Assembly: GCA_024653215.1 (NCBI GenBank)
Contig: JANLFU010000004.1
Coordinates: forward strand, 29,574-93,573
From: Candidatus Saccharicenans sp.
GTDB taxonomy: Bacteria > Acidobacteriota > Aminicenantia > Aminicenantales > Saccharicenantaceae
Length of the DNA stretch: 64,000 bases
Direction: 5' to 3'
Part shown: positions 4,537 through 50,367 of the stretch, in pieces
How the letters are laid out: each line of letters opens with the position of its first letter
How positions within the stretch are numbered: the stretch's first letter is position 1
Notes under the pieces: generated by a model
Databases searched by the model: none
The model's input: only the letters and a program-made list of their open reading frames with translations
Told to the model about the DNA's origin: nothing
Position numbers and translations under genes: made by a program

Positions 4537-4594
4537 GCGGTCCATTAATAATCAGGTCGGAGAAACCGACCTCGCGCTTCTAAGACAGCGGGTC

Positions 4595-4984
4595 TCAGCC
4601 AGACTCTTTTAAAAAATCTTTCAGGCGCCGGTATTCTCTCTCCAGGGCCTCCAAAGCCTCCCTGGCCGTTTTCAGGTCCTGGTTCTGTCCGGCCTGTTCC
4701 ATCTTCCAGGCCGCTTCCCTCAGGGCCGGAAGGCTCAGGTTGGCCGAGGCTCCTTTCAGGTAATGTCCGGCTTCCCTGATGACCTGGAAGTCTTTCTCCT
4801 GGACGGCCTTTTCCAGCTCGTCGTATTTCTTTTGGAATTCCTCATCATAGATGCCCAGCAACTCCTGGAGGAAGGCTTCATCTCCGCCGATTCTTTCCAG
4901 CGCTTCCTTGCGGTCGATGGGTGCAGGGGCGCTATTTTTTCCTGCCATCCCTATCCTCCTTCCTTTTTTTATTATCCGAATCAT
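4595..4984 (-). CDS. Histidine phosphotransfer (Hpt) domain protein
   Basis: Hpt signature HYLKGASANLSLPAL (HxxKGxxxxxG). Lies immediately downstream on the same strand of the hybrid kinase. Confidence 0.6.
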   Translation of the reverse strand: MIRIIKKGRRIGMAGKNSAPAPIDRKEALERIGGDEAFLQELLGIYDEEFQKKYDELEKAVQEKDFQVIREAGHYLKGASANLSLPALREAAWKMEQAGQNQDLKTAREALEALEREYRRLKDFLKESG

Positions 4985-28310: not shown

Positions 28311-28338
28311 AAAGGGGACACCTTAGAGTGTCCCCTTT
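28311..28338 (+). terminator. Perfect 11-bp-arm inverted repeat 24 nt after the kbl stop. Likely an intrinsic terminator.
   Basis: AAAGGGGACAC-CTTAGA-GTGTCCCCTTT, followed by TAAG. Confidence 0.5.
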
Positions 28339-28387: not shown

Positions 28388-28414
28388 GGAGACACTCTAA
28401 GGTGTCCCCTTTTG
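28388..28414. repeat. Second copy of the same palindromic element in inverted orientation
   Basis: GGGAGACACTCTAAGGTGTCCCCTTTT is the reverse complement of the 28311-28338 element with 1-2 mismatches. The pair brackets the junction between the kbl operon and the RHS cassette array. Confidence 0.5.
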
Positions 28415-28445: not shown

Positions 28446-28901
28446 AAAAATTATGCCTTTGACGGGAGGCTTCTGGCTGAGTATGATGGATATGGGAATT
28501 GCCTGCGTGAGTATATCTACATAGGGGCGAAGATGGTGGCTGAGTACCAGCCGGCTACGGGCAAGTATTACTACTACACCACCGACCAGATTAACTCCAC
28601 CCGGGTGGTGACGGATGATGAGGGTAACGTGGTGTATTCCGCGGTCCATGACCCCTATGGCGGGGTGCAGCAGACCTGGGTCAACACCTTCAACCCCGGG
28701 TGGAAATTTTCCGGCAAGGAGCAGGATGCCGAGTCAGGTCTCTACTACTTCGGGGCCCGCTACTACGACCAGAGCCTCTACCGCTTCCTCAGCCCCGACC
28801 CGGTGATTCCCACCGACCGGGCCCTTTACAACCCGCAGCGGTGGAATCTGTATGGGTATTGCGGAAATAATCCGATAAATTTTGTCGATCTAGATGGCCG
28901 T
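28446..28901 (+). repeat. RHS core-tip repeat copy A. It encodes …YAFDGRLLAEYDGYGNCLREYIYIGAKMVAEYQP…YYYYTTDQINSTRVVTDDEGNVVYSA…LYYFGARYYD…LYRFLSPDP…NNPINFVDLDGR.
   Basis: The frame opens directly after a stop at 28443-28445, with no start codon at the homology boundary. Nearly identical nucleotide and protein sequence recurs at the head of each downstream toxin ORF. Confidence 0.8.
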
Positions 28902-29441
28902 ATTTTAGTTCCGGTAAACAATATTGCAGACGCTACTATTGCTGCGAGATATAAGTACCTTGATAATAGGTTTTTGAGCAAACTTTCTGATGTCTTCTTC
29001 TGGCTTAGCGAAAGCGGTATCGATATCATAATTACCAGTATGTATAGACCGGCGGCTTTTCAGGCCGAGTTGAGAAAGCAAAACCCGGCCAACACCGCGA
29101 AAGGCATAAGTTATCATCAGACAGGCTGGGCGATAGATATATCCTGGGCAAATTTTTCAGAAGAAAAATTCAAGGAATTCGTTGATTATTGTAAATCCAG
29201 AGGTTTTATAGTCATTAAAGAGACGCGCGTTAACAGTGACGGTACCACCTCAGTATGGATACACATAAGCATAGATGACCCTAAGAAAAAATCTTCGAAG
29301 GCCGCAAGTTCAGCGGAACGACTTTTCCACTTATATAACAGTGCCATTTTTAATATGATAAATAGTTTTTTTGAGTTGATGATGTCACAGGATCCTTGGT
29401 TTGGAATGGTGACTGCACCGTATGAGCAATACATGATTTGA
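28533..29441 (+). CDS. Orphan RHS C-terminal module A: RHS core tip fused to an M15/LAS-type (VanY-like) peptidoglycan peptidase toxin domain
   Basis: After the …NNPINFVDLDGR junction, the C-terminal 180 aa contain SYHQTGWAIDIS (SxHxxGxAxD) and VWIHISID (WxH). These are hallmarks of M15 D-Ala-D-Ala / L-Ala-D-Glu peptidases. The toxin domain is AT-rich, unlike the repeat. Confidence 0.6.
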   Translation: MVAEYQPATGKYYYYTTDQINSTRVVTDDEGNVVYSAVHDPYGGVQQTWVNTFNPGWKFSGKEQDAESGLYYFGARYYDQSLYRFLSPDPVIPTDRALYNPQRWNLYGYCGNNPINFVDLDGRILVPVNNIADATIAARYKYLDNRFLSKLSDVFFWLSESGIDIIITSMYRPAAFQAELRKQNPANTAKGISYHQTGWAIDISWANFSEEKFKEFVDYCKSRGFIVIKETRVNSDGTTSVWIHISIDDPKKKSSKAASSAERLFHLYNSAIFNMINSFFELMMSQDPWFGMVTAPYEQYMI

Positions 29442-29462
29442 ATCACAAATTAGGAGAAATGG

Positions 29463-30800
29463 ATGAAAACGCGAGCAATTATTTTTTTGGCATCGATGCT
29501 AACATTAAATTCTTTAACTCTTTCGGCGTCGTCGCCAACCTCTTTTGATGATTTAATCCAGTGGGCAATCTTAAGGGCAGAAACAAATATCAAATATAAG
29601 ATCGGGAGCTATACAGATTATATTCAAGTCTGGTACGACTTAACCTCATTGATTCCAAGAATAGAAAATGCAGAGCTGCGAGCCAGAGCTGAATTCTTGC
29701 GGTTAAAAGCTATTGAACAGGGATTGTGGCTATTACAGGGGAGTGGTCTCGAAGGACAAGAGATCAGGCCTGAGGGGGAGGCCTGGCTTAAGGCTATCGG
29801 CGAATATATTTATTTAGCTGGTCCAGATTGGCCATGGAATAGATGGTCAATACGGCCTGATATATGGTGGAAATACTGCGACCTTTATTCGGCAACTTCT
29901 TTTTCCGATGATTTTGCCTGGGAGGCGGCCAGCGAAGACCTGCCTTATGAATGCGAGGGCGATTTGGTTTGCGAGGTAGAAAAGATTAATAGGACTTACG
30001 GACGTTATCTGAATAAATTTCCTCAGGGGAAATATTATCGTCTGGCACTGGAGAGAATTTATAATTTCCTTGTTGTCAGGGTTCCTGAATTAGGATTCGA
30101 GAGCATAAAAAAGGAGGATTTCAGCCCAGAGGTATGGGATGAATTAGATGGAAATCTAAGATCGCTATACGGGGTTATTGTAAAGACGGATACTGAGAGT
30201 AAAGACGAGTATAGCTATTCTGTTTTGTCAAACTTCGAGCGGGTGTTTGGAGATGTGGTTAAAGATAAGAAGTCAAGCCTCCCTGCTATTGATAAAAAGA
30301 GCGAAGATTCGAACTTATATTCTGGATTGTCGAGGACCAATTTTAATATTTTGGATCAGCCGCCAGAAATAGCCATGGCCCTTTGGAAGAAACTTAAAAA
30401 CGAGCAAGCCGAGACGAAGAATCAAAACCAACTGGGCTTAATCGAGTTAGAGGAATTGATATGCCTTGAGAAAATGTTGTCAAGCCGCACAGTTGAGGAT
30501 CTCCTATCTGGTAAGGTTCTTGAAGCGGCGGATGTTTCACTAATTGAAGGAAAACATGTCAAGCATGAAGCTTTATTGGACCTGCATAAGAAGTTCAAAA
30601 ATCAGGCCGTATCCGATGACATTGCTTTTTACTTAACGCAAAACACATTCAGCCGACCAGGTACCAGTTCTTATACAGGCATTAGTGCTTCCATGATAAT
30701 GAGGGAAATAAATGAGAAAGAAGGGCTTTACCTGAGGCTTCATCCAAGGGGTAAATATGTTCCTATATGCCTTTTAATATTATCGAATCGATGGGGATGA
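29463..30800 (+). CDS. Secreted (signal-peptide) protein, candidate periplasmic immunity protein for module A
   Basis: 445 aa. N-terminal signal peptide MKTRAIIFLASMLTLNSLTLSAS. Low GC. Lies immediately downstream of toxin A. Confidence 0.45.
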   Translation: MKTRAIIFLASMLTLNSLTLSASSPTSFDDLIQWAILRAETNIKYKIGSYTDYIQVWYDLTSLIPRIENAELRARAEFLRLKAIEQGLWLLQGSGLEGQEIRPEGEAWLKAIGEYIYLAGPDWPWNRWSIRPDIWWKYCDLYSATSFSDDFAWEAASEDLPYECEGDLVCEVEKINRTYGRYLNKFPQGKYYRLALERIYNFLVVRVPELGFESIKKEDFSPEVWDELDGNLRSLYGVIVKTDTESKDEYSYSVLSNFERVFGDVVKDKKSSLPAIDKKSEDSNLYSGLSRTNFNILDQPPEIAMALWKKLKNEQAETKNQNQLGLIELEELICLEKMLSSRTVEDLLSGKVLEAADVSLIEGKHVKHEALLDLHKKFKNQAVSDDIAFYLTQNTFSRPGTSSYTGISASMIMREINEKEGLYLRLHPRGKYVPICLLILSNRWG

Positions 30801-30997
30801 TAAGCGGCAAAAACCCGCTCGGAATTAAGGCCTCATTTGAACCCGGGGATCAGTCATATGAAGTTGAGCTAGCTAAGCTTGGCGAGGAATTGAAAACTTG
30901 TCAAAAGGAAAACGAGAATCTTAAAATCGCGAAGCAGGCCCTAGATGAGTATCAGGGGCTGAAAACTTATAGTAAACCCGATGAATTTTTAAGATGA
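30767..30997 (+). CDS. Small hypothetical ORF (76 aa) between cassettes A and B
   Basis: ORF overlaps the end of the previous gene by 34 nt. No recognisable motif. May be a cassette remnant. Confidence 0.15.
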   Translation: MPFNIIESMGMISGKNPLGIKASFEPGDQSYEVELAKLGEELKTCQKENENLKIAKQALDEYQGLKTYSKPDEFLR

Positions 30998-31038
30998 ATA
31001 AGGGAGAGTTCATAATTGGAAGGTTAAATGATGTAAGA

Positions 31039-31425
31039 TAAAACTTAGGGGCGAAGATGGTGGCTGAGTACCAGCCGGCTTCGGGCAAATATTACTACTA
31101 CACCACCGACCAGATTAACTCCACCCGGGTGGTGACGGATGATGAGGGTAACGTGGTATATTCCGCGGTCCATGATCCCTATGGCGGGTTGCAGCAGACC
31201 TGGGTCAACACCTTCAACCCCGGGTGGAAATTTTCCGGTCATGAGCAGGACCCTGAATCCTCCCTTTACTACTTCGGGGCCCGCTACTACGACTCTACTC
31301 TCTACCGCTTCCTCTGCCCCGACCCGGCATTTAATGTCTCTCTAATGAAAAGCGATATGCAACATTGGAACCTTTATTCTTATTGCAGAGATAATCCCTT
31401 AAACTTCATAGATTTTACCGGTTTA
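31039..31425 (+). repeat. RHS core-tip repeat copy B. Homology begins at …GAKMVAEYQPASGKYYYY…
   Basis: About 90% identical at protein level to copies A, E, F and G over YYYYTTDQINSTRVVTDDEGNVVYSAVHDPYGG…WKFSG.EQD…LYYFGARYYD. Confidence 0.8.
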
Positions 31426-31974
31426 TATTCATTTACTGTTCATGTAAATATTATAAGGCTCAGCTATGGGGCATTAGTTCCTGATAGCAGACCAGATCAT
31501 ATGATATGGATGAGGGGTGTGGGCCTTACCCTGTATCCATCCGGCAAAATTACCCCAACAATTGGAGATAATGGCAAAGCTGAATTAAAATTTGAACTCG
31601 ACTGCCATATTTATATTTTGCCTGACGAGCAATTGAAAAATTTTGGAACAGATTATGCTTCGGTAATAAAGCACGAAATGACTTATCATAAGGAGTTCGT
31701 TGAATTATGGGTTAGCATGTCGCTAAGTCGCATAGAAAAAAAGTGGAGAGAAGAGATGAAAAAAGATCCCCAAGAGGCCCTAAAAAATGCTTATAAAAGA
31801 TTTGAAAAAACAACGAAAACAGCCGAATGGATAAGCAACATACTCCACTTCGCATCTTTAAATCTATATATGGAAGTGGTGGCATCTTATTGGGATGAAA
31901 TAGATCGTGATTGGCTCGCATGGAAATACGATCCATATATGGCCTGGCTTTTAATGGTTCCTTATGCAAATTAA
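31057..31974 (+). CDS. Orphan RHS C-terminal module B: RHS core tip fused to an HExxH putative zinc-metallopeptidase toxin domain
   Basis: Junction …DNPLNFIDFTGL. The C-terminal domain contains VIKHEMTYH (HExxH). It shares architecture with the module D toxin domain. Confidence 0.55.
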   Translation: MVAEYQPASGKYYYYTTDQINSTRVVTDDEGNVVYSAVHDPYGGLQQTWVNTFNPGWKFSGHEQDPESSLYYFGARYYDSTLYRFLCPDPAFNVSLMKSDMQHWNLYSYCRDNPLNFIDFTGLYSFTVHVNIIRLSYGALVPDSRPDHMIWMRGVGLTLYPSGKITPTIGDNGKAELKFELDCHIYILPDEQLKNFGTDYASVIKHEMTYHKEFVELWVSMSLSRIEKKWREEMKKDPQEALKNAYKRFEKTTKTAEWISNILHFASLNLYMEVVASYWDEIDRDWLAWKYDPYMAWLLMVPYAN

Positions 31975-32013
31975 CCCGTTTCGAATGGGGTTGTGTATGA
32001 TGGAGAGCAAATT

Positions 32014-32424
32014 ATGAAAAAAGTTTTATCTATTCCCCTTATTACAATTATCATCCTTATTATTATCATTTTAGTTTATTGGATTTATGTATGGATCCAA
32101 GAAGATAGGTTAATGAAGAAGATAACCTCGATTGAAGAGGGGATGGATGAAGACGAAGTAATCCGGTTATTAGGGGAACCGAAGAGAGAAGTCCAGGTAA
32201 AAACTGATGAGATAACGAAGGGATGGTCAATACCCGGACAGGGGGATCTTGAAAGAGTGAAGAAAGAATATAAAGAGCTTGTAAGCTATGTGTATTATAT
32301 TAAAAGATACAACCTTATGAAATTGCGGGAACGGTTACCTGGGTCCATACACTCTATCTACATTGATCCGGCCTCAAGAAAGGTGGTATATGTGAAGAGC
32401 ATATTTATTATGTCTTATTGGTAA
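32014..32424 (+). CDS. Membrane-anchored BamE/SmpA_OmlA-like protein, candidate immunity protein for module B
   Basis: N-terminal TM (IPLITIIILIIIILVYWIYVWI). Then GMDEDEVIRLLGEPKRE, resembling the SmpA/OmlA GMT..V...LG.P signature. GGAGAG RBS before the ATG at 32014 (track start 31993). Paralogous to 34521-34985. Confidence 0.5.
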   Translation: MKKVLSIPLITIIILIIIILVYWIYVWIQEDRLMKKITSIEEGMDEDEVIRLLGEPKREVQVKTDEITKGWSIPGQGDLERVKKEYKELVSYVYYIKRYNLMKLRERLPGSIHSIYIDPASRKVVYVKSIFIMSYW

Positions 32425-33098
32425 ATATGTTTATTAAAGATATATCTGAATCCTCCCTTTATTACTTCGGGGCCCGCTACTACGACCCCGCGCTCTACCG
32501 CTTCCTTAGCCCCGACCCGGTGATCCCAACTGACCGGGCCCTCTACAACCCGCAGCGGTGGAATCTGTATGGGTATTGTTTAAATAATCCTCTGAACCTT
32601 TGTGATCCCGACGGCAGGGCGAGTGATTATGTACATTATGACCTTACCTATAAATTAGCCTTGGAAGCTGGTATTCCTGAGGATGAAGCCCGAATTATTG
32701 CTGAGGCCAACCGTAATGTTGACAAGGATTGGCGGACAAGTTCATTTAATCCTCTGGGACGCAGATTTCATTACCCTGATGCTTTTACTCTAAATTGGGC
32801 TTTGGATATTGCGTATAACACGAAAGACCCAGTTATGCTTGGATTTGCGTTGCACGTAATTCAGGATGCAATCTGGCATTTTAATTGGTTATTTAATCCG
32901 CTGGGGCATTTAATAGAATCTGTAGGAGATAAGGTTTTTGATTGGATCTGTTCTAGGTTAGGCGTATATCCAGACATCGAATTTGATCCAGATAGCCCAT
33001 ACTCAGCTTTTATTTCGTTGGATATACTCTGGTGGGTGAGATATGTGACATTTGATATATTGCAGGATTATAAAGCAAGAAAAGAGGCTTGTCGTTAA
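32418..33098 (+). CDS. Orphan RHS C-terminal module C: truncated core tip fused to a toxin domain of unknown type (H-x3-D-x3-H motif)
   Basis: Junction …CDPDGR. The C-terminal domain has conserved His/Asp clusters (DYVHYDL…, ALHVIQDAIWHFNW) loosely reminiscent of Zn-dependent phospholipase C / P1-nuclease metal sites. Start codon uncertain. Confidence 0.45.
   Translation: MVNMFIKDISESSLYYFGARYYDPALYRFLSPDPVIPTDRALYNPQRWNLYGYCLNNPLNLCDPDGRASDYVHYDLTYKLALEAGIPEDEARIIAEANRNVDKDWRTSSFNPLGRRFHYPDAFTLNWALDIAYNTKDPVMLGFALHVIQDAIWHFNWLFNPLGHLIESVGDKVFDWICSRLGVYPDIEFDPDSPYSAFISLDILWWVRYVTFDILQDYKARKEACR
32448..32618 (+). repeat. RHS core-tip repeat copy C, 5'-truncated. Begins at …ESSLYYFGARYYDPALYRFLSPDP…
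   Basis: Only the distal half of the repeat (LYYFGARYYD…NNPLNLCDPDGR) is present. Confidence 0.75.
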
Positions 33099-33117
33099 TG
33101 GATAAGAAGGTTGTGAA

Positions 33118-33684
33118 ATGAAACCGAGACTTAATTTAACAAACAGAAGGGTATTGTTATTCTTGTTATATTGGGGGTTTGGAATTAGCTTTTCTATCTT
33201 TGATGCAGCCTATGGGGTATTACTGATATTTTTCCCATGGGCTGCGTTGGTATTAGGGCTTTTAGTTCTACCGTCGATATTAATATCTAATAAGCTTGGT
33301 TTTCCAGACACCACTCTTCTTTTTGGTCGCATTGGTTTAGTAATGTCGTTATATTTCGTTGCCGTCCTATTCGTTGTGCTTAGTGTGCTTTATGTTTTTA
33401 TATTAAATCAACTAAATTTGAGCACAGGGAAGAACTCAAGGTATAAATTTCCTTGGCTGACTTTTTTATTCCATTTATCCGGGATTTTCTGTTCGATACC
33501 TCTATATATAGGTTTTATCAATTCAGATAAAGTAAATCTTTTACCTTTTGCCAAATATTATCAGATGTTTGCCTACCCGATCTTAGCGATGGCAACATTT
33601 TTATTTATTTATATTGACTGGCGGCTGGCAAGGGAAATAGCCGAAGATGAGAAACAAGAAGCGGAGAATAGGTCTCAGTTTTAG
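33118..33684 (+). CDS. Polytopic membrane protein (5-6 TM), candidate immunity protein for module C
   Basis: 188 aa, almost entirely hydrophobic helices. AT-rich. Lies directly downstream of toxin C. Confidence 0.45.
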   Translation: MKPRLNLTNRRVLLFLLYWGFGISFSIFDAAYGVLLIFFPWAALVLGLLVLPSILISNKLGFPDTTLLFGRIGLVMSLYFVAVLFVVLSVLYVFILNQLNLSTGKNSRYKFPWLTFLFHLSGIFCSIPLYIGFINSDKVNLLPFAKYYQMFAYPILAMATFLFIYIDWRLAREIAEDEKQEAENRSQF

Positions 33685-34516
33685 GAATCAAAAAATGATG
33701 ACTATTCTATTTCCTGAAAATGGGATTCGACAGACCTGGATGGGGGGCAAAGAGGCCGGAGCGAGTAATTCCGGAAAGGAGCAGGACCCTGAATCCTCCC
33801 TCTATTACTTCGGTGCCCGCTACTATGACCCCACGCTCTACCGCTTCCTCAGCCCCGACCCTCAACAGATACCTGCAATCGCTCGTTTTGAAATTAATCG
33901 ATTTAATAAATATTTTTTTGCTAATAATAATCCCATATCCTATTTTGAATTTAGTGGATTGTGGGCGATTATTCACAAAGAAACTAAGATTATTAACGCC
34001 AGCTATATGAGCTATCTGGGAAAAAGTATTGAAGGCAAGGATGTTTATATGAAAGGGTTTGGGATGACAAACGTCCTGCCCGAAGATTTGAAGATAGATC
34101 TATCTAAAGAAACAGGTATCACAGTTAGTGTGACCTTTACAATATTCATTTTAGCGAAAGAAGATATTCAGTGGAAGCAAGAAGACGCAATAGTAGGTCA
34201 TAATAACTACGAAAATGTACTCAGGCATGAGCTAACACATGTTTATGACATTCTTCTAATGGTGTCTTTAGCCCTGAACAAAATTGAGGCCCAGTGGAAG
34301 GCAGGAAAGATTTCTGATGAGGAGGCCAGAAAATTAGTTAATAAAGCCTTCATAAGGGCATCTAAAGCTTCAAGCAGCCTCAGAGATGACTGGGGAGTAG
34401 AATGGTTTAAGTGGCTCATCAATTGGTTTGAAGAACTGAAACCAGAACATAATTATTCAGCTTTTTGGGAATGGCTACTAACACCATATATTTATTTTCT
34501 TATGAAATGCAATTAA
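33647..34516 (+). CDS. Orphan RHS C-terminal module D: truncated core tip fused to an HExxH toxin domain (paralog of module B)
   Basis: The C-terminal domain contains LRHELTHVYD (HExxH) in a context alignable to module B (…FILAKEDIQ… vs …YILPDEQLK…). The track start at 33647 overlaps the previous gene. The true start is uncertain. Confidence 0.5.
   Translation: MRNKKRRIGLSFRNQKMMTILFPENGIRQTWMGGKEAGASNSGKEQDPESSLYYFGARYYDPTLYRFLSPDPQQIPAIARFEINRFNKYFFANNNPISYFEFSGLWAIIHKETKIINASYMSYLGKSIEGKDVYMKGFGMTNVLPEDLKIDLSKETGITVSVTFTIFILAKEDIQWKQEDAIVGHNNYENVLRHELTHVYDILLMVSLALNKIEAQWKAGKISDEEARKLVNKAFIRASKASSSLRDDWGVEWFKWLINWFEELKPEHNYSAFWEWLLTPYIYFLMKCN
33770..33961 (+). repeat. RHS core-tip repeat copy D, 5'-truncated. 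Begins at …SGKEQDPESSLYYFGARYYD…
   Basis: Distal half of the repeat, ending …NNPISYFEFSGL. Confidence 0.75.
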
Positions 34517-34520
34517 TCCA

Positions 34521-34985
34521 ATGACTATAAAAATAAAGAAAAAAACGTTCATATTTATAATAGCGTTAGCGTTAGTTATTGGTGCTTTTGCATATTTGGG
34601 CATATTGGAAATGCTGGATAAAACTCTTGTCAGGCGAGCAGAGTTATTGAAAGCGGGGATGACAGAAAGTGACGTGGTAAATATCTTGGGAAAACCCCGG
34701 GAGTTCGAGCTTATAGACTTAAGAGTGGCAGAAAATAGAGGTCTGCCTAAGGCTATTTTGAGTCGGATTGAAAAATACAACCAGGCAATAAAATGGTGGG
34801 CATATTATGTGCCGGGATATCTAGTCAATCCACCGTTTCTTTTCCATCCAGGGCCTTACAGGACAATTGTTGTTGTCTTTATTGATCATAATGGACATGT
34901 GGTTCACTCAAGTATTGGTATAACAATTAGAAGAATAAAGCCTTTTGAATTACTAATGAAAGATCGCGATACAAATCAGAATTAG
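34521..34985 (+). CDS. Membrane-anchored BamE/SmpA_OmlA-like protein, candidate immunity protein for module D (paralog of 32014-32424)
   Basis: N-terminal TM (FIFIIALALVIGAFAYLGIL). Then GMTESDVVNILGKPRE, the same motif and position as in the module B partner. Confidence 0.5.
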   Translation: MTIKIKKKTFIFIIALALVIGAFAYLGILEMLDKTLVRRAELLKAGMTESDVVNILGKPREFELIDLRVAENRGLPKAILSRIEKYNQAIKWWAYYVPGYLVNPPFLFHPGPYRTIVVVFIDHNGHVVHSSIGITIRRIKPFELLMKDRDTNQN

Positions 34986-35075
34986 TAATAAAGGGTCTAA
35001 AAATAGGGAAAACGTTTGCTTTGTAACTTTATCTAGGCTGTTTGAGTTCCAAGAATTTTGAAACAGAGATTGTGG

Positions 35076-35500
35076 ATTGATATGATGGCTATGGGAATTG
35101 CCTGCGTGAGTATGTCTACATGGTGGCGAAGATGGTGGCTGAGTACCAGCCGGCTACGGGCAAGTATTACTACTACACCACCGACCAGGTTAATTCCACC
35201 CGGGTGGTGACGGATGATGAGGGTAACGTGGTGTATTCCGCGGCCCATGATCCCTATGGTGGAGTGCAGCAGACCTGGGTCAACACCTTCAACGCCGGGT
35301 GGAAATTTTCCGGCAAGGAGCAGGATGCCGAGTCAGGTCTCTACTACTTCGGTGCCCGCTACTATGACCCCACGCTCTACCGCTTCCTCAGCCCCGACCC
35401 GGCGATCCCCTCCGACCGGGCCATCTACAACCCGCAGAGGTGGAATTTATACGGGTATTGCCTGGGCAACCCGATAAATTATGTTGATATGGCCGGTGAG
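35076..35500 (+). repeat. RHS core-tip repeat copy E. Begins at …YDGYGNCLREYVYMVAKMVAEYQP…
   Basis: Full-length copy of the repeat, ending …GNPINYVDMAGE. Confidence 0.8.
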
Positions 35501-36034
35501 CAAGCAGAAAGCTCTCGAAAGCTGATAATAACCAGGACTATTTCTGGACCTACAGGAACGTTCGGTCGTTTTAAATTTGAGGGTAAATACATCACCATAG
35601 AAGGGGAGACGCTTGAACTTCCCTGGAGAAACAACATAAATTATATAAGCCGTATTCCTGAAGGGGAATACGAGGCGATATTACATTATTGGGATGATAG
35701 GGATATATGGGCCTTGTTGCTCCAAGACACTGGATCTCGTAAAGGGATTTACATCCACGAAGGGAACACGACAAAAAACACCAAGGGGTGTCCGCTTATT
35801 GGCCAGCGGTTTGATAACCAGGGGAGGCTATCAGGAGGCAGGGCACTTAGAGAGGCCATTACTGCTGATTATTTAATTGACCAGGTCTTAAGCGCCTGGT
35901 TTAATCTTGACAGGCTGAGCCGCACTGTTCAAAAGGCAACTGCTAAGATTGAAAGAGGGGAAGTGTATTCTGAGTGGGCATGGATTGGATTTACTCTAGT
36001 CATTAACGGCGTGCAATATTATTTTTATTTTTAA
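35120..36034 (+). CDS. Orphan RHS C-terminal module E: core tip fused to a YkuD-like (L,D-transpeptidase-fold) candidate peptidoglycan-targeting toxin domain
   Basis: C-terminal domain motif IYIHEGNTTKNTKGCPLIG (H-x9-T-x-G-C) resembles the His…(S/T)xGC catalytic motif of L,D-transpeptidase-like effectors. Homologous to the module F toxin domain. Confidence 0.45.
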   Translation: MVAKMVAEYQPATGKYYYYTTDQVNSTRVVTDDEGNVVYSAAHDPYGGVQQTWVNTFNAGWKFSGKEQDAESGLYYFGARYYDPTLYRFLSPDPAIPSDRAIYNPQRWNLYGYCLGNPINYVDMAGEQAESSRKLIITRTISGPTGTFGRFKFEGKYITIEGETLELPWRNNINYISRIPEGEYEAILHYWDDRDIWALLLQDTGSRKGIYIHEGNTTKNTKGCPLIGQRFDNQGRLSGGRALREAITADYLIDQVLSAWFNLDRLSRTVQKATAKIERGEVYSEWAWIGFTLVINGVQYYFYF

Positions 36035-36048
36035 TAAGGGGAACAAGA

Positions 36049-36726
36049 ATGAAATGGCCAGGCCTAAAATATCTTAATTTTCTGATTGCGTTTCCAATAC
36101 TAATGATGTCGTTGACTTACCCTCTGGAGAATACGTCGGTCGCTTATCCAAACCAGGTTAATAAGATGCTAACCTTAGAAGAAGCAAAAGAAATTATAGA
36201 TATTTTCTTAAACGACCCAACTGAGGCAAACTTTAAGATTGTACAAGAGACGATATATCCTTTTCTGAGTGTAGTCGATCAGGAATCAACACCGTTTCAA
36301 GACAAATTGTTTTCTTATGTACTTACTCGGGAGCCGTTCTGGATTTTTGAGTATGAAATATTTGCGGGTAATAGGTTAATGGCCTTGTTTGCCAGGAGGC
36401 TCTTGGATGTTTCAGACGGGGCTTATGCGAGCATGTTGTTTAAACTGTTCGGAAAGTTGAGTCGCCTTAATCCCGAGTTATTCCTGACCATGTTTAAGGA
36501 TGACATAAAAAAGCCGGTTTTAGAATTGGCAGTTACAGAATCAATTTTTCTCGAGGGAACAGAAAAATATCAAAGATATGACAGGTATGATCTAATCCAG
36601 AGGATAAAAGCATTAAGGACGGTAACCAATCCGGAACTAAGAAATATAAGAGATTATTGCATCTTATTATTGGAAAGAGAATTGAAGGAAAACGGGCTAT
36701 ATCAGATGGGATATTCTCGTAAGTAG
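36049..36726 (+). CDS. Secreted protein (signal peptide), candidate periplasmic immunity protein for module E
   Basis: Signal peptide MKWPGLKYLNFLIAFPILMMSL. C-terminal region …RIKALRTVTNPELRNIRDYCILLLEREL aligns with the module F partner (…RIKALETVDCPIYLDLRNECIKILEKEI). Confidence 0.5.
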   Translation: MKWPGLKYLNFLIAFPILMMSLTYPLENTSVAYPNQVNKMLTLEEAKEIIDIFLNDPTEANFKIVQETIYPFLSVVDQESTPFQDKLFSYVLTREPFWIFEYEIFAGNRLMALFARRLLDVSDGAYASMLFKLFGKLSRLNPELFLTMFKDDIKKPVLELAVTESIFLEGTEKYQRYDRYDLIQRIKALRTVTNPELRNIRDYCILLLERELKENGLYQMGYSRK

Positions 36727-36737
36727 AGTTTAGCCTA

Positions 36738-37592
36738 ATGATCTTAAGAGATTTTCCTTACACCGCCGACCAGGTTAACTCCACCCGGGTGGTGACGGAT
36801 GATGAGGGTAACGTGGTATATTCCGCGGTCCATGATCCCTATGGCGGGTTGCAGCAGACCTGGGTCAACACCTTCAACCCCGGGTGGAAATTTTCCGGTC
36901 ATGAGCAGGACCCTGAATCCTCCCTTTACTACTTCGGGGCCCGCTACTACGACCCCGGCCTCTACCGCTTCCTCAGCCCCGACCCGGTGATTCCCACCGA
37001 CCGGGCCCTTTACAACCCGCAGAGGTGGAATCTGTATGGGTATTGCCTCGGCAACCCGATAAATTTCGTAGATCCCTTCGGGGATATTACGATTAGAATA
37101 TGGCGGACACTTTATAACAATTATGCCACATATGGGGTTTATGAAATCGAGCTTGGAGACACGAGAATCTGGGGTTTTACAATGGAGCCGGCGAAGGGCA
37201 AGGGAAAAGGACCGATACCGGCAGGGATATATGAGGCTGACTGGTTCTATTCAGAAGAAAATAAAGAACTCAGGATTAAAATTAATGACATCCCGAACTT
37301 CAAAAACATAAGAATTCACAAAGGAAATTACCCTGGCGATACGACCGGATGCATTTTAGTAGGGAAAGATGTTAATACAGGAGGCGATCTGTTAGGCTCG
37401 GGAAAAGCGATGGCAGAAATAAGAGGGGGAATTATGGATTATCAGATGGGTGCTCTGAAAGAATATATAGCTGATGGCGAATTAGATCTTGAACTTTTGC
37501 ATCGGATTTTTGATATGCAAGTTATCATATATGATATTCCGAAGGGTAGCGTAACGGTAGAAGTTACATCTATACGCTATCTTATGTATTAA
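36738..37592 (+). CDS. Orphan RHS C-terminal module F: core tip fused to a YkuD-like candidate toxin domain (paralog of module E)
   Basis: IRIHKGNYPGDTTGCILVG (H-x9-T-x-G-C). Alignable with module E across …IPEGEYEA… / …IPAGIYEA… and the HxGN…TxGC core. Confidence 0.45.
   Translation: MILRDFPYTADQVNSTRVVTDDEGNVVYSAVHDPYGGLQQTWVNTFNPGWKFSGHEQDPESSLYYFGARYYDPGLYRFLSPDPVIPTDRALYNPQRWNLYGYCLGNPINFVDPFGDITIRIWRTLYNNYATYGVYEIELGDTRIWGFTMEPAKGKGKGPIPAGIYEADWFYSEENKELRIKINDIPNFKNIRIHKGNYPGDTTGCILVGKDVNTGGDLLGSGKAMAEIRGGIMDYQMGALKEYIADGELDLELLHRIFDMQVIIYDIPKGSVTVEVTSIRYLMY
36759..37085 (+). repeat. RHS core-tip repeat copy F. Begins at …YTADQVNSTRVVTDDEGNVVYSAV…
   Basis: Copy truncated within the YYYTTDQ segment, ending …GNPINFVDPFGD. 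Confidence 0.8.
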
Positions 37593-37610
37593 AGAGAGGG
37601 GGACGTCAAG

Positions 37611-38294
37611 ATGATGCTGGATTTTATAAAAGCCTTATCAAAGCTCTTATTAACTTCATTTTTTCTTCTTTTAATATCCGATTTAATGATTGCTCAGGCA
37701 GGAGCGGGGGGCGCACAAGATGCAATCATTCTTGATTGGGATAAGTTAAGGTCAGCGGTACAGAGATACAATTTAAAGCCGAACGAGGATAATGCGAGGG
37801 CGATATTAGAATCGATTCCTGAAAAAATGCCTGATAAGCAGGTTGGGGATGATGAACGTGCTTTAGATTATATGCTTGATAAGAGTCCAATAATTAAGAA
37901 GCAGATTGAGTCGGGGAATGAGTATCTGGCTGAAGCTGCATTCAGAATGTATTTTATTGTGCTTCCTGGTGATGCTCTGGAAGAGCTTACCTTAATGCTC
38001 TGCAAGATGCTGGAAAAGAAGCCCGAGCTATATCTTAGCTTGTTAAAAAAATATAAACCTCAATTTCCATGGTATCTCGAGTACCCATTGCTGATGACCG
38101 AGTTTGATGAAAAATTTGATGCAGAGCCCGATGGCCGGATTAGGCGTGACATTAAGATATATCGGCGGCGGATAAAGGCCTTAGAGACAGTGGACTGTCC
38201 TATATATTTAGATTTAAGGAATGAATGCATAAAGATTTTGGAAAAAGAGATTAGTCTGTTTGAATCGAAACTAAAAATTGAGTTGACTTCTTAA
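37611..38294 (+). CDS. Secreted protein (signal peptide), candidate immunity protein for module F (paralog of 36049-36726)
   Basis: Signal peptide LLLTSFFLLLISDLMIAQA. C-terminal similarity to the module E partner. GAGAGGGGGA RBS. Confidence 0.5.
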   Translation: MMLDFIKALSKLLLTSFFLLLISDLMIAQAGAGGAQDAIILDWDKLRSAVQRYNLKPNEDNARAILESIPEKMPDKQVGDDERALDYMLDKSPIIKKQIESGNEYLAEAAFRMYFIVLPGDALEELTLMLCKMLEKKPELYLSLLKKYKPQFPWYLEYPLLMTEFDEKFDAEPDGRIRRDIKIYRRRIKALETVDCPIYLDLRNECIKILEKEISLFESKLKIELTS

Positions 38295-38295
38295 T

Positions 38296-38715
38296 ATGCC
38301 AGAGGGAATTCCGTTCGCAATAAGCCAGAATAAATTCAAGATCGTGGAGAGGCTGGGTGCTTTTGAGAGGGTAAGGGAAAGGTTAAGAATCAGGTGGGAA
38401 GAAGCCGGGGTAGATGGGTCTATTTCAGGCTACAGGCCTTCAAGTGGGGCGGCCATTGACAGGCTGAAGAGGATGGATGGCTCAAAGGTAGGCTCGGGCG
38501 GGGACTTACGGACGATGTCTGTGGGGACCGTCGGGATATATTACATCTATGCCTTTGACGGGAGGCTTCTGGCTGAGTATGATGGATATGGGGATTGCCT
38601 GCGTGAGTACATCTACATAGGGGCGAAGATGGTGGCTGAGTACCAGCCAGCTACTGAAAAGTATTACTACTATACCACCGACCAGATTAACTCCAGCGGG
38701 GGTGGTTCTATGTAA
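38296..38715 (+). pseudogene. RHS stub G: retains a longer upstream YD-repeat-like segment (…GIYYIYAFDGRLLAEYDGYGDCLREYIYIGAKMVAEYQPATEKYYYYTTDQINS) then terminates with SGGGSM*. No toxin domain.
   Basis: Homology to the shared repeat stops exactly at TTDQINS, where copies A/B/E continue with TRVVTDDEG. Followed by a stop. Interpreted as a recombination or deletion scar. Confidence 0.5.
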
Positions 38716-38891: not shown

Positions 38892-39545
38892 ATGAACGCG
38901 CTTGAGCTTCGAAGCCGAATTCAGACTGAAATATTTGACTACCAGACTCTAACCAGTGCGCTCGGCAGCCTGTCATCTCCAAGGGATAAGATTACAGAAC
39001 TGCTGAGGAGCGGGATAATTATAAGGGTTAAGAAGGGGCTTTACGTATTTGGCGAAAAGTATCGTAAGCATGCCTATTCCAGGGAACTGCTGGCCAACCT
39101 TATATATGGCCCATCCTATCTCTCTCTTGATTATGCCCTGGCCTATTACGGCCTCATACCGGAAAAGGTTGAAGTCCTGACCTCGGTTACCCCCAATCGA
39201 TCTCGCCGATTTGCCACGCCGGTTGGTCTTTTCACTTACAGGCAGATACCGCATGGTGCTTACATAAATGGCCTGACCAGGGTTGAGGCCGATAATGACC
39301 AGGCCTATCTAATTGCCATTCCCGAGAAGGCCCTGGCTGATAAGGTCGCTTCCCTGCGCGGGCTCGCTTTCAATTCAACCAGGGAAGTCGCTCGTTTTCT
39401 CGAGGAAGATTTGAGAATAGATCTGGAGGCGCTGCGTTCTTTCTCAGTGGCCAAACTTGAAGAATTTGCCGCCGGGTATCGTTCCCGCAAGCTTAGGTAC
39501 CTGGCTGCCATGGTAAAAAAACTGGCCGCGAACCGGGAGAAATAA
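38892..39545 (+). CDS. abiEi: AbiEi-family antitoxin / transcriptional regulator (type IV TA, abortive-infection type)
   Basis: N-terminal wHTH-like region with …IIIRVKKGLYVF… …LANLIYGPSYLSLDYALAYYGLIPE…, typical of AbiEi_4/COG5340 proteins. Precedes the nucleotidyltransferase gene with a 1-nt gap. Confidence 0.65.
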   Translation: MNALELRSRIQTEIFDYQTLTSALGSLSSPRDKITELLRSGIIIRVKKGLYVFGEKYRKHAYSRELLANLIYGPSYLSLDYALAYYGLIPEKVEVLTSVTPNRSRRFATPVGLFTYRQIPHGAYINGLTRVEADNDQAYLIAIPEKALADKVASLRGLAFNSTREVARFLEEDLRIDLEALRSFSVAKLEEFAAGYRSRKLRYLAAMVKKLAANREK

Positions 39546-39546
39546 A

Positions 39547-40413
39547 ATGAATGAAGCCGTCAGGCAAATGCTGGGGGGATATGAAATTAAATCCCCGGGC
39601 GATTCGCTCTGGGCCTTGCGCGAAATAATTCAACAGGTGGCCCTTCTCGGGCTGTGGAGAAGCAAGTTTTTTGAAAGGGCCGCGTTTTATGGGGGGTCGG
39701 CCCTGAGGATAATTTATGGGATCGACCGGTTTTCCGAGGACCTGGATTTCTCCCTCCTCGAGGCGGACCCGGCTTTCTGCCTGGCCGATTATGGCCAGGC
39801 CCTGAAGCGGGAGCTGCTTTCCTTTGGGTTTTCTGTTGAAGTTGAAAGCAAAACAAAAAAGGAGAAAACAACCGTTCAGTCGGCCTTTCTTAAAACCGAT
39901 ACCCGTGAGCAGATGATCTCAGTGGGAATTAAGCCTGAACTTGTTAAGCAGATCCCGCCTAACCAGGTGCTAAAAATTAAGCTCGAGGTCGACGTGACCC
40001 CGCCACCCGGATTCTCAACTGAGATGCGTTATCTTCTAAAACCGATTCCGTTTTCCGTAAGGACCTTTACCCTGCCGGACATGTTCGCGGGCAAGATGCA
40101 CGCGGTTCTCTGCCGTCAATGGAAAAGCCGGCTCAAGGGCCGGGACTGGTATGACCTGGTCTGGTTTACCGCTCATCACCCAGAGTTGAGATTATCGCAT
40201 TTAGAGCAGAGGATGCGCCAGACCGGTCACTGGAAGGGATCAAGTCCCCTGGACGAGAGCACTTTTCGAGAATTGCTGATTGGCAGGGTAAAATCGGTGG
40301 ATGTGGAGCAAATAAAGAGGGAGGTGGAGCCCTTCGTCAGCAATCCGGCTGTCCTGGAAGTCTGGTCGCGAGAATTTTTTCTGGATATCATAAAGCGTAT
40401 TAAAGTTATCTGA
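39547..40413 (+). CDS. abiEii: AbiEii/AbiGii-family nucleotidyltransferase toxin (DUF1814)
   Basis: GGSALRIIYGIDRFSEDLDFS matches the conserved N-terminal nucleotidyltransferase motif of AbiEii. 288 aa. Confidence 0.7.
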   Translation: MNEAVRQMLGGYEIKSPGDSLWALREIIQQVALLGLWRSKFFERAAFYGGSALRIIYGIDRFSEDLDFSLLEADPAFCLADYGQALKRELLSFGFSVEVESKTKKEKTTVQSAFLKTDTREQMISVGIKPELVKQIPPNQVLKIKLEVDVTPPPGFSTEMRYLLKPIPFSVRTFTLPDMFAGKMHAVLCRQWKSRLKGRDWYDLVWFTAHHPELRLSHLEQRMRQTGHWKGSSPLDESTFRELLIGRVKSVDVEQIKREVEPFVSNPAVLEVWSREFFLDIIKRIKVI

Positions 40414-46868: not shown

Positions 46869-47966
46869 TTAATTTTTCTGAATCCCGGTCGGCCTTCTTG
46901 AAAAAATCTCATGGTAATTCTTTATCTTGATCCTTTTTATCACCGGCCAACCTTCCCGATCTTCCGAGATGAAATACAAAAATCCATTATTTATCAATTT
47001 CGGTTTGGCCTGGCACTTAGCGGATAGTAAATAGTTGCCTTCTTCACTATAAATGTCTGCTATGTAGATTTTTTGTTTGCGCCTTTTCCGAGATGTGGTT
47101 ATCACATATAACCTATTCGATTCATCCAAAATCAATGCACTGAAAAGAGGCGCTGGGTTTCTACGATGGACATCATTTCTTGTCCTTTGACTTGAAATAT
47201 CCGGGGTTGTCTCCCTCGAAAAGGGAGGCCCCTCAATTGTTCTGACCAGGTTTCCAGAATAATCGTAAAACCTGATAAAGTACTGCGAGTTGTGAGCTAA
47301 CCACACTCCATTTCCGGCAGGGCATATGATAAAAGCCGGGAGGTTCTCGGGGTTAATAATCCCACCCGCCACTCCCCCTTCTTTACTGAACCTCAAAGTC
47401 CAGAGGCCGTGATCCTTAGGTTCCTGAAGAAAATATTTTATTCTTCCCTTTGCATCTAATCCGGTGATTTGACCAATCTTGCCTGATTCAGTGCTTGATA
47501 AGGTTACACCTATTATTTCATCATCATTGCTGGCGGCAAAATTGCCCGCGAGAAATGTGTCCAGTGGGAATTGTCTCAAGAACTCTCCTTTTCTTGAGTA
47601 TATTATTATTTTCCTTCCCTGGTCGTTGATGAATATCTTTTCTTCATTAACCCCCATGCCAATTATCCCTGTAAACTCGCCCGGCCCTTGGCCGGTTGAT
47701 CCAATTTCTCCGCATAAATTTCCACTGGCGTCCCATTCGGTAATTTTATCCTGTTCCAGCACATAATATTTTCCCCATCGGCTTAGATAAAATTCCTGGA
47801 TGAGTTTGGCTCCCGATTTTCTCGTATCTATAAAGATCTCCTCCTCGCCTTCCTTTATAAATTCTAGTTCTTCAAACCGCATAGATTGGTGCAATTTAAA
47901 AAATCCAATGCCTATGAGCATGGCAACGAAAATGATCGCAATAAGTACCGCTCCCCTCTGCTGCAT
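46869..47966 (-). CDS. Membrane-anchored NHL / 6-bladed beta-propeller-like protein
   Basis: N-terminal TM (AVLIAIIFVAMLIGIGFF). Repeated …G.IGSTGQGPGEF…I.V…DDEI… blade-like units. AT-rich. Own TTGACA-N15-TAGAAT promoter-like sequence immediately upstream of the ATG (possibly leaderless). Confidence 0.45.
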   Translation of the reverse strand: MQQRGAVLIAIIFVAMLIGIGFFKLHQSMRFEELEFIKEGEEEIFIDTRKSGAKLIQEFYLSRWGKYYVLEQDKITEWDASGNLCGEIGSTGQGPGEFTGIIGMGVNEEKIFINDQGRKIIIYSRKGEFLRQFPLDTFLAGNFAASNDDEIIGVTLSSTESGKIGQITGLDAKGRIKYFLQEPKDHGLWTLRFSKEGGVAGGIINPENLPAFIICPAGNGVWLAHNSQYFIRFYDYSGNLVRTIEGPPFSRETTPDISSQRTRNDVHRRNPAPLFSALILDESNRLYVITTSRKRRKQKIYIADIYSEEGNYLLSAKCQAKPKLINNGFLYFISEDREGWPVIKRIKIKNYHEIFSRRPTGIQKN

Positions 47967-48009
47967 CTCAAATTCTATTCTGAGTTAGTTAATGTCAAGA
48001 TAAAGTGTC

Positions 48010-48288
48010 TTACACCATCGGAGGCACGGCCTCACAATATGAGCCCCACCAGGCTCCGCCGCACTCACAGAAAATACCTCTTATGGGCCCTCCCGAATAA
48101 TACCTGTAATAACCACAGACCTCATGTCCGCCGCAATTTCCAAAAGTTTCGCAGAAAAGCAAGGTCCCATCCCCGCATAAGAAATTAATGCCGCAGCTAA
48201 GAGCGGGCCGACTGACTGTGAAGAAAAAGCCAGCAATGAGTGAGCTGACGATGAGAATTGGTATCGCCAGCCGCTTAAATTTTGGCAT
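48010..48288 (-). CDS. Secreted cysteine-rich small peptide precursor (92 aa, 8 Cys in the mature ~60 aa)
   Basis: Strong AAGGAGGG RBS 5 nt before the ATG. N-terminal signal/TM MPKFKRLAIPILIVSSLIAGFFFTVSRPALS. Then CGINFLCGDGTLLFCETFGNCGGHEVCGYYRYYSGGPIRGIFCECGGAWWGSYCEA, rich in Cys, Gly, Tyr and Trp. Confidence 0.55.
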   Translation of the reverse strand: MPKFKRLAIPILIVSSLIAGFFFTVSRPALSCGINFLCGDGTLLFCETFGNCGGHEVCGYYRYYSGGPIRGIFCECGGAWWGSYCEAVPPMV

Positions 48289-48316
48289 GTTAACCCTCCT
48301 TGATAAAATTATGAGT

Positions 48317-49411
48317 TCATAAATCAGCCTCGAAGATTATGGGCTGCCGGTTTTCCGGCCTTGTCGCCAGGCCAAACATCCTTCCGGCCGGCAAAATGAC
48401 AAAGCAATCTATATAAGAGGTTATATCTTGGTCATTCAGAGTTATCTTGAGCGTTCCGAGGAACTCGGCCTGCGGGCCGAACAGTAGAAATTTCTCATAC
48501 CCAAGGTAGTAGATGGACCCCTTATAAACTCCAATCCCTCTGTTCATTCTGACCAGCCGGATCTGGTTTGGTTTATTCTGTTTTTCCGGCGTGTCAGCCA
48601 TGATCTCCCTTTCTCGTTCCAGGGCGCGGTTAATCTCAGGAATATCTGATAGGCGCAGGTCCCTTTTGAATAGCTCCTTTCCAGTATGCCGGTCAAAGGC
48701 GAATAGTATCGGCAGGCAGGCATAAGCACCGTAGATGATCTGCCCATCAGCAAACAGCTCAACCAGGTTAAAGTGAAGATGAGCTATGTGGGAGGAACAT
48801 TTTATGGCTTTACCAAAAGCGCGGATTTGGTTGAAATTGAAATCAAATATGGAGAAAATGGGTTCCTCATTCATCTCGGCGATAGACCGGGTGACCTTTC
48901 TCGCTGGCGCAATCAATTCATTTTCCTGGCCGATGATGAGTGAGGGAAGGAAATAGGTTTCTTTCCTGGATATCACCCTTATCTTTGGGGCAAACCGATC
49001 GAATATTTTTATCTCTCCACCGGAGTTGTTTATGACGGCCAACATCTTATCGTTTGCGGTGACCGCCACGGGATAGTACAAATCTATCTCTCTCTGACCT
49101 ATACCCCCAATTACTCTTCTTAGCCTCCCCTCCCTATCAATTTCCAGGATCCTGTGCCTGTTAGAATCAATCAGGTATGCGGTTAAATCTTCGGTCATGT
49201 GGAATAGCTTGGTCTGAAAAAAAGTCCGGGAAATTTCGAAGTCTGTACCCAGGGTCTGCAGATCCAAAAATATCCGGGCCGCGATGACCATTTCTGGTAA
49301 GTTGCGGCCCCCCGGCACAGGGTTTTCCTGGTGGCAGGACGTGGAAAGACAGAGAAATAACATGATGAATGGAAAGGGTATATAAAAGCTTGGTCTTCTA
49401 CGTATTATCAT
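48317..49411 (-). CDS. Lipoprotein, NHL / beta-propeller-like (paralog of 46869-47966)
   Basis: Lipoprotein signal (…IMLFLCLSTSC). …IGGIGQREIDLYYPVAVTANDKMLAVINNSGGEIKIF… blade-like repeats. Start ATG overlaps the stop of the upstream redoxin gene (ATGA), indicating translational coupling. Confidence 0.45.
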   Translation of the reverse strand: MIIRRRPSFYIPFPFIMLFLCLSTSCHQENPVPGGRNLPEMVIAARIFLDLQTLGTDFEISRTFFQTKLFHMTEDLTAYLIDSNRHRILEIDREGRLRRVIGGIGQREIDLYYPVAVTANDKMLAVINNSGGEIKIFDRFAPKIRVISRKETYFLPSLIIGQENELIAPARKVTRSIAEMNEEPIFSIFDFNFNQIRAFGKAIKCSSHIAHLHFNLVELFADGQIIYGAYACLPILFAFDRHTGKELFKRDLRLSDIPEINRALEREREIMADTPEKQNKPNQIRLVRMNRGIGVYKGSIYYLGYEKFLLFGPQAEFLGTLKITLNDQDITSYIDCFVILPAGRMFGLATRPENRQPIIFEADL

Positions 49412-50367
49412 TTCAGCTTCGTTTTTAATTTACTAATTCTCTGGTTTATTTCTTTAATTATCCTTTCTTCTGAGAATCCCGGATATTCAGACCAGATAAC
49501 CACCCTATTATTATCGATAAGAACAGACCAGGGATCACACTTTAATCTTTCCTCTGTTATAAAAATGTTCTCTTCTGACATGAAATTTTGAATCAAATAT
49601 GTAGGGAAATTCCACCCCTGGGAGGTTCTAATCATCTTGACATCATCAACAGAAAAAGGCTCCATGAAAAAAACACCGAGGAAGGGGCCATCACCCGCAT
49701 TCGTGGAAATTTTCCGGAGCGTCTCAAGCCGGCTCACATGTTTGCAGGAAAGGCAGGAAGAATATGAAGAAAAAAATGTGAGAATGTTTAATTTTTTTAA
49801 CTCTTCAGATAGGGTCCTTCTTTGCCCATCTATTTCATAAATCATAAAGTCTGGAATAATTTCCCGTTCAATAAAAGGAGGTGACCAGACCGGGGGCTCC
49901 GCTCGCATTTCAACCATGTTCAGGTGTCTTTCTATTAGTTGTCTCAACAGCTCAGGCGGGAGAAGCTCGCTTTCCTTGAAAAGTATTTCTTGGTCAGGAC
50001 TGACAAGCATGGTAGCGCCACAGCACCCATTCAGGTTATGCTTTTCGATAAATTTGATTCCTCCGTCCTGTATTACGGGAAAAGATACCCGGCATAGCTG
50101 CTTGGCTTCTTCGGTGTCTTGGCGATTTCCGGTTGAAATTCCGAATACGGATAAGTTGAACATCTTAAATCTTTTCCATAGAGCCTGGGCATACATAATC
50201 GAAAATCTGTGAGAGAGGTTTTTGGGATCAAAAACTAAGAATAGTTCATGCTGGCGATGTAACCTATCACTAACCACCTGTTGGGGGTTGATGACTCCAG
50301 GAACCAGGCTGCGTAGGCAAGAAAAGGACAGGGTTAGAAAAATCAGGGTTTTCCCAACCCTATGCAT
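49408..50367 (-). CDS. Lipoprotein thiol-disulfide oxidoreductase (thioredoxin/TlpA-like fold, CxxC)
   Basis: Lipoprotein-like signal MHRVGKTLIFLTLSFSC. Redoxin-like segments (…VFGISTGNRQDTEEAKQ…, …LTFFSSYSSCLSCKHV…) with a C-L-S-C motif. First gene of the AT-rich operon. Confidence 0.4.
   Translation of the reverse strand: MHRVGKTLIFLTLSFSCLRSLVPGVINPQQVVSDRLHRQHELFLVFDPKNLSHRFSIMYAQALWKRFKMFNLSVFGISTGNRQDTEEAKQLCRVSFPVIQDGGIKFIEKHNLNGCCGATMLVSPDQEILFKESELLPPELLRQLIERHLNMVEMRAEPPVWSPPFIEREIIPDFMIYEIDGQRRTLSEELKKLNILTFFSSYSSCLSCKHVSRLETLRKISTNAGDGPFLGVFFMEPFSVDDVKMIRTSQGWNFPTYLIQNFMSEENIFITEERLKCDPWSVLIDNNRVVIWSEYPGFSEERIIKEINQRISKLKTKLK

Follow-up and report, generated by a model that had tools for sequence, protein, structure and literature searches.

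We analysed a 64-kb stretch of DNA from Candidatus Saccharicenans (64,000 nucleotides, here called the window), in which two toxin-like genes, B and D, are each followed by a small gene encoding a candidate immunity protein, ImmB and ImmD respectively. Both pairs lie on the plus strand within a 10-kb block (around 28.45–38.7 kb) that has a guanine-plus-cytosine (GC) content of 0.37–0.45, compared with 0.55–0.60 in the flanks. The Rhs-associated core family TIGR03696 was found at the N terminus of all large plus-strand open reading frames (ORFs) of the block, with E-values of 1e-15 to 1e-22 (a truncated fragment at the 3′ end, G, was not scanned against NCBIfam). The tip that follows the core differs from gene to gene, and a small ORF lies downstream of each tip gene, making six modules. 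The block is an array of orphan Rhs toxin–immunity cassettes, and the features that concern us most are the following, where TM stands for transmembrane.

28452–38715, plus strand: the whole low-GC array of orphan cassettes, including B and D, delimited by ORFs, composition and domain matches.
31057–31974, plus strand: cassette B, an Rhs core remnant (31057–31425) and a 182-residue toxin tip (31426–31971).
32014–32424, plus strand: ImmB, a candidate immunity protein of 136 residues with a TM anchor (residues 7–28) and a BamE-like domain containing GMDEDEVIRLLGEP (32140–32181).
33647–34516, plus strand: cassette D, the last ~60 residues of an Rhs core and a 184-residue toxin tip.
34521–34985, plus strand: ImmD, a candidate immunity protein of 154 residues with a TM anchor (residues 10–29) and a BamE/BLIP-like domain containing GMTESDVVNILGKP (34656–34697).

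The boundaries of these four ORFs agree with those reported in a first-pass annotation of the same DNA, and the toxin and immunity genes are separated by 39 nucleotides in B and by 4 nucleotides in D. Both toxin genes matched TIGR03696 above its 32.5-bit cut-off (E = 2.6e-19 for B and 2.7e-15 for D). The apparent start of B, MVAEYQP, corresponds to an internal methionine of the core in a longer gene carried by a sister strain (contig L002, described below), and the start of D is uncertain, with the NCBI product being a 273-residue protein beginning MMTILF. Rhs and TcC proteins carry PxxxxDPxGL as a conserved boundary motif and autoproteolysis site. The core ends with NPLNFIDFTGL in B (boundary at 31414–31425) and NPISYFEFSGL in D (33950–33961), which retain the spacing and the Gly-Leu of this motif, with Asp-Pro replaced by Asp-Phe in B and by Glu-Phe in D. 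Boundary forms nearer the canonical one occur in other cassettes of the array (VDLDGR in A, CDPDGR in C and VDPFGD in E and F).

Aligned as whole proteins, B and D are similar with an E-value of 4e-37, driven mostly by the Rhs core that they have in common. The tips alone were 27% identical over 133 residues (E = 2e-8), with their two His-Glu motifs in register, so the earlier proposal that the two C-terminal domains are alignable paralogues holds with the core removed. The same proposal had assigned an HExxH motif to both tips, which is correct for D (HELTH, nucleotides 34226–34240, residues 194–198) but not for B, in which one inserted residue produces HExxxH (HEMTYH, nucleotides 31672–31689, residues 206–211). 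The insertion is real and not a sequencing error, because an independent homologue with 76% identity (P0003) and six more relatives have HExx[C/G/Y]H. Further downstream, an invariant glutamate lies within RIEKKW in B (31729–31746) and KIEAQW in D (34280–34297), and an invariant tryptophan lies within DPYMAW in B (31930–31947).

An exhaustive HMMER profile search of 1.84 billion representative proteins (E ≤ 1e-3) showed that the toxin-tip family comprises just 21 proteins, with identities to D of 16–38% and with an Rhs core N-terminal to the tip in every member long enough to show that side. Five columns of the 21-sequence alignment are invariant: a histidine, a glutamate, a second histidine, a glutamate 16 residues after the second histidine and a C-terminal tryptophan. 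The first three form HExxH in 13 of the 21 members, including D, and HExx[C/Y/G]H in the other eight, including B and P0003. The tip had no sequence match in Pfam, NCBIfam or the PDB, and when the toxin and immunity alignments were used in word-index homology searches, only self matches and near relatives came back. Scanning GTDB genomes with the D tip alone identified one locus, L009, and a scan with one family alignment gave no relatives. The B/D tip is a previously unannotated, rare toxin domain within a well-known kind of system.

The downstream proteins are also paralogues, as had been proposed: ImmB and ImmD are 23% identical over 94 residues (E = 4e-7), and the match persists at E = 1e-6 after removing the TM segment. 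The N-terminal TM helix and the GM[DT]E.[ED]V...LG.P motif attributed to them are present in both, the motif at nucleotides 32140–32181 and 34656–34697, and each protein has a single strongly hydrophobic N-terminal segment (Kyte–Doolittle 19-mer peak of 3.1 for ImmB and 2.8 for ImmD). Their N termini are rich in lysine (MKK.. in ImmB and MTIKIKKK in ImmD) and, by the positive-inside rule, the predicted topology is therefore N-in with the domain in the periplasm. An AlphaFold2 model of ImmD reached a predicted local distance difference test (pLDDT) score of 70.7, and the immunity protein has the arrangement of the BamE fold, with helices followed by a three-stranded sheet. These results support the description of the partners as membrane-anchored BamE-like proteins.

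Membrane-anchored BamE-like immunity is a described class, most widespread for several polymorphic toxins with a predicted site of action in the periplasm or membrane (PMC12419801), and the immunity part of the B and D modules is therefore of a known kind. ImmB and ImmD resemble this class in having a single N-terminal TM anchor, a fast-evolving α/β domain, a place right after the toxin gene and predicted neutralization in the periplasm (Burroughs et al. 2025, PMC12419801). Their small α/β fold is also like that of BLIP and BLIP-like proteins (1jtg, 3gmx and 3d4e), in which it inhibits a periplasmic or extracellular hydrolase. However, BLIP is a secreted tandem repeat, whereas ImmB and ImmD have a single copy of the domain on a TM tether, and there is no detectable sequence relationship.

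The first-pass annotation had taken the parallel divergence of two adjacent genes as strong evidence for their pairing. Pairing is supported here, but this argument carries less weight than was claimed: two genes duplicated as a block will diverge together with or without interaction of their products, and parallel divergence inside one array is therefore weak evidence for interaction. Other loci provide stronger evidence. A gene of the same TM and GM..EV..LG.P family follows a toxin-family gene at eight other places (L001, L004, L005, L006, L007, L008, the longer L002 gene and L009), and this adjacency is kept even where the neighbouring cassettes differ. The downstream gene encodes an N-terminal TM helix and the GM..EV..LG.P domain in L001, L004, L005, L006, L007 (where it is cut off) and L008, with the called gene in L006 covering the domain alone. 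In L001, a B-type module sits after an F-type cassette. In L009, a different species-level genome, the D module lies directly before AbiE genes, and cassettes E and F and fragment G are absent. This array is otherwise different; its toxin tip shares 92% identity with that of D and its immunity protein ~91% with ImmD (our own count).

The two families also diverge together across these loci. For eight toxin–immunity pairs, the toxin and immunity similarity matrices were correlated (Pearson r of 0.88, exact Mantel p of 1.7e-4), with matching subclades in toxin and immunity consisting of B, L001 and L006, which form the HExxxH group, and of D, L004 and L005. Comparing B with its L001 orthologue gave a ratio of nonsynonymous to synonymous substitution rates (dN/dS) of 0.16 for the toxin tip and 0.31 (0.169/0.55) for ImmB, both well below 1, indicating that tip and immunity gene are both maintained by selection. 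Given the conserved adjacency and the correlated matrices, the B and D tips behave with their partners as toxin–immunity units, as was originally proposed, and we conclude with high confidence that B with ImmB and D with ImmD are toxin–immunity modules.

The remaining cassettes of the array are as follows, with PLC standing for phospholipase C.

28533–29441, plus strand: cassette A, an M15/VanY-like tip, followed by its partner (29463–30800).
32418–33098, plus strand: cassette C, a DUF6765/PLC-like tip gene, followed by a multi-TM partner (33118–33684).
35120–36034, plus strand: cassette E, with a DUF5675 tip, followed by its partner (36049–36726).
36738–37592, plus strand: cassette F, with a DUF5675 tip, followed by its partner (37611–38294).
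38296–38715, plus strand: G, a truncated N-terminal fragment.

Cassettes E and F are matched as well, with proteins that are 50% identical (core included) and signal-peptide partners that are 29% identical (E = 7e-9); their DUF5675 tips were recognized with E-values of 1e-22 in E and 9e-20 in F, together with a weak YkuD match in E (E = 0.1). The tip of cassette C, which is DUF6765/zinc-PLC-like, carries HVIQDAIWH. An extra cassette of the sister contig L002 (2675–4685) encodes a toxin 41% identical to that of C and a multi-TM partner (4182–4685) that matches the C partner, ImmC, with an E-value of 2e-7; a second multi-TM ORF of this cassette lies at 3574–4110. The C family is a third toxin family with the same matched divergence, which B and D thus share with other cassettes.

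All six partner proteins of the array have a signal peptide or TM segments, and the tips other than B and D are akin to cell-envelope enzymes (M15/VanY-like, YkuD-related DUF5675 and PLC-like). Because the partners are exported or membrane proteins and the other tips are similar to enzymes of the cell wall or membrane, we consider it probable that the B and D toxins act in the envelope. The window also encodes a TonB-dependent receptor, which shows that the host has an outer membrane. Periplasmic action, which the first-pass annotation had predicted from the membrane anchors, is thus a reasonable inference from the partners of the whole array, and we retain it at that strength. The metallopeptidase activity predicted alongside it is not established, as B lacks a canonical HExxH and no peptidase family was matched above threshold.

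The explanation that best accommodates these results, and that we hold with moderate confidence, is that B with ImmB and D with ImmD are two diverged copies of one toxin–immunity module in an orphan Rhs array, each pairing a periplasm-acting, metal-dependent hydrolase tip with a membrane-anchored BamE-like immunity protein. The pattern of invariant residues, as read from the alignment, points strongly to a catalytic site or a metal site, and the hydrolase would most likely be a peptidase or amidase; we propose peptidase chemistry itself tentatively. An AlphaFold2 model of the D tip (pLDDT of 86.9) shows a β-sheet followed by a helical bundle within ~180 residues. Resembling gluzincin metallopeptidases and Tox-MPTase tips, the B/D tip has a His-Glu-x-x-His-like motif with invariant histidines and glutamate, an invariant glutamate shortly downstream, a preceding β-sheet and a position at the end of a polymorphic toxin. 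It differs from them in having no profile or structural match, in the predicted placement of the glutamate within the HExxH helix and in the HExxxH of one subclade that includes B. Over the motif region, sub-threshold matches were obtained to Peptidase_M76 in D (E = 0.12–0.25) and to DUF922 in two of the 21 members (E = 0.06–0.08).

Several observations weigh against this explanation. The model of the tip did not match a zincin fold, neither the tip nor its relatives matched a peptidase family above threshold, and PDB sequence searches with 3-member and 21-member profiles found nothing relevant. In the DSSP assignment of the D model, HExxH (residues 89–93) and Glu109 lie within one unbroken helix (residues 83–113); if this is correct, Glu109 cannot be the third metal ligand. 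The extra residue between the glutamate and the second histidine in eight of the 21 members, including B, could be accommodated in an i/i+4 helical zinc site only by a bulge. Finally, no secretion system or delivery domain was identified in the window.

The main rival accepts the modules as toxin–immunity pairs but sees the tip as a hydrolase other than a peptidase, whose target on the periplasmic side of the membrane would be a lipid-linked envelope precursor or a lipid head group (lipid II and undecaprenyl carriers are examples), with the His/Glu residues serving phosphoester or other hydrolysis. The literature on the BamE-like immunity class suggests it. The C-terminal half of the toxin, a bundle of helices with many Trp, Phe and Tyr residues and one invariant Trp, would be apt for binding at the membrane interface, and the missing zincin fold also speaks for this rival. 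However, Lipocone toxin tips have a signature of H2 histidine, H3 glutamate and H4 aspartate on separate core helices (PMC12419801), whereas the invariant polar residues of the B/D tip lie on one helix and include no invariant aspartate. The same study ties BamE-like immunity to VanY-like peptidase tips too, and the immunity fold therefore does not discriminate between the two kinds of toxin. On balance we regard a lipid hydrolase as unlikely.

A non-enzymatic tip, which would either bind a protein of the envelope, in the way that BteO binds OmpA, or insert amphipathic helices into the membrane, is improbable. The histidines and glutamates would then be contact or structural residues, but they are invariant down to 16% identity to D while the rest of the tip drifts, which is characteristic of catalytic or metal sites and not of an interface. 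In addition, the family profile found no PDB chain resembling BteO (9UU0), and pore-forming toxins usually have integral-membrane immunity proteins. Assignments of the tip to Lipocone, colicin-M-like or BteO-like families were rejected on the residue pattern and the lack of fold matches, and a ferritin-like or hemerythrin-like di-metal bundle was rejected on the grounds that its ligands are needed on several helices and the invariant polar residues here lie on one only.

The sister-strain contig indicates how such tips may be deployed. From position 28481 on, the window and L002 share 99.8% identity, and L002 has ~4.4 kb extra at its 5′ end, which includes a 588-residue gene (385–2151) absent from the window. 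In nucleotide sequence, the N-terminal region of this gene is 97% identical to fragment G. The tip, with HELSH, adds a third member to the B/D family, and the gene is followed by a 142-residue partner with a TM segment and GMSDIEV. It has only a few YD repeats and is far shorter than shell-forming Rhs proteins. Fragment G, at the 3′ end of the array, runs from the N-terminal region into the start of YD/core, where it is truncated. Three relatives of 421–619 residues (P0007, P0011 and P0024) have the same layout, with a motif of the form (I/V)PF(A/G)(I/V)S(E/Q)xxFxIV. The N-terminal regions of these longer relatives had no Pfam family match, and Pfam scans of them and of the neighbouring genes identified no trafficking or secretion domain. 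No N-terminal delivery region is joined to a cassette within the window, and the toxins therefore probably lie silent, as a reserve. No full-length YD-repeat shell gene was found in the 64-kb window, a search that covered no other part of the genome.

That the B and D cassettes are instead decaying relics of past recombination, whose similarity records only the duplication of a block, might be suggested by the missing delivery region, by the mere ~60 residues of core kept in D and by apparent start codons that are internal codons of an ancestral gene, but is very improbable given that all ORFs are intact, that dN/dS is well below 1 in both the toxin tip and the immunity gene, that the D module is ~91–92% identical within the otherwise different array of L009 and that a tip of the same family is carried by the 588-residue gene of the sister strain.

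Returning to the diverged copies of one toxin–immunity module, B and D would be alternative tips kept in store for a polymorphic toxin. Recombination can activate orphan Rhs cassettes (PMC3967940), and Rhs-core DNA is present at seven places in the array with 64–94% identity. The core remnant of each cassette may thus serve as a homology arm, letting the cassette recombine onto a longer, deliverable gene. The recombined tip would enter the envelope of a neighbouring cell and work in the periplasm or on the inner membrane's outer face. ImmB and ImmD, each tethered to the inner membrane through a single N-terminal helix with N-in, C-out topology, would bind and block the cognate toxin through their periplasmic BamE/BLIP-like domain, and the immunity genes could still protect against neighbours deploying such toxins. 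With B and D only 23–27% identical, protection by either immunity protein is probably limited to the cognate toxin.

The array is like described orphan Rhs/CdiA cassette arrays (the Salmonella rhs orphan, PMC3967940; reviewed in PMC4436062) in that its cassettes are in tandem on one strand, each with a core fragment, a variable tip and a small immunity gene downstream. It further shares with them repeated core DNA as recombination homology, GC content below that of the flanks and content that varies between strains. Unlike those arrays, it has no full-length, shell-forming Rhs gene nearby, PxxxxDPxGL is degenerate (IDFTGL and FEFSGL), the longest related gene observed, the 588-residue one of L002, has an uncharacterized N-terminal region, and the host is an uncultured Aminicenantia-type bacterium. 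A speculative and doubtful extension is that the tip is the founding example of a new fold of metal-dependent envelope hydrolase unrelated to zincins, with an HE(x)xxH...E site that tolerates a one-residue bulge, borne on unusually short ‘mini-Rhs’ proteins of ~420–620 residues that have a conserved, uncharacterized N-terminal region and no YD shell. If true, this would imply a delivery route unlike the encapsulating model of Rhs proteins and the type VI secretion system.

The surroundings of the array contain further elements. The array starts abruptly at ~28446–28452, in the middle of a YD repeat (…YAFDGRLLAEY). Between this point and a 2-amino-3-ketobutyrate-CoA-ligase-like gene lie two GC-rich hairpins that are almost the same in sequence and face opposite ways, GGGGACACCTTAGAGTGTCCCC at ~28313–28334 and an inverted copy at ~28389–28411, which may be terminators or a small repeat element. 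Directly 3′ of the array, at 38892–40413, one gene encodes an AbiEi-like antitoxin, whose E-value of 4.8e-5 narrowly missed the Pfam cut-off, and another an AbiEii toxin (E = 1e-31). A second low-GC stretch (0.42–0.48) on the minus strand, at 46869–50367, has three ORFs of 319–365 residues, one with a weak match to a DUF5128 β-propeller and the other two without a Pfam match; it may be another acquired island.

The co-diversification of toxin and immunity described here is the expected behaviour of such systems and changes no concept. The sharply defined invariants of the tip (H, E, H, E and W) make its chemistry easy to test, and the recently described BamE-like immunity class gains a new partner. 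Together, our results extend the catalogue of polymorphic toxins by an unannotated toxin domain family and the immunity family matched to it, from Aminicenantia, an uncultured lineage in which little is known of interbacterial antagonism.

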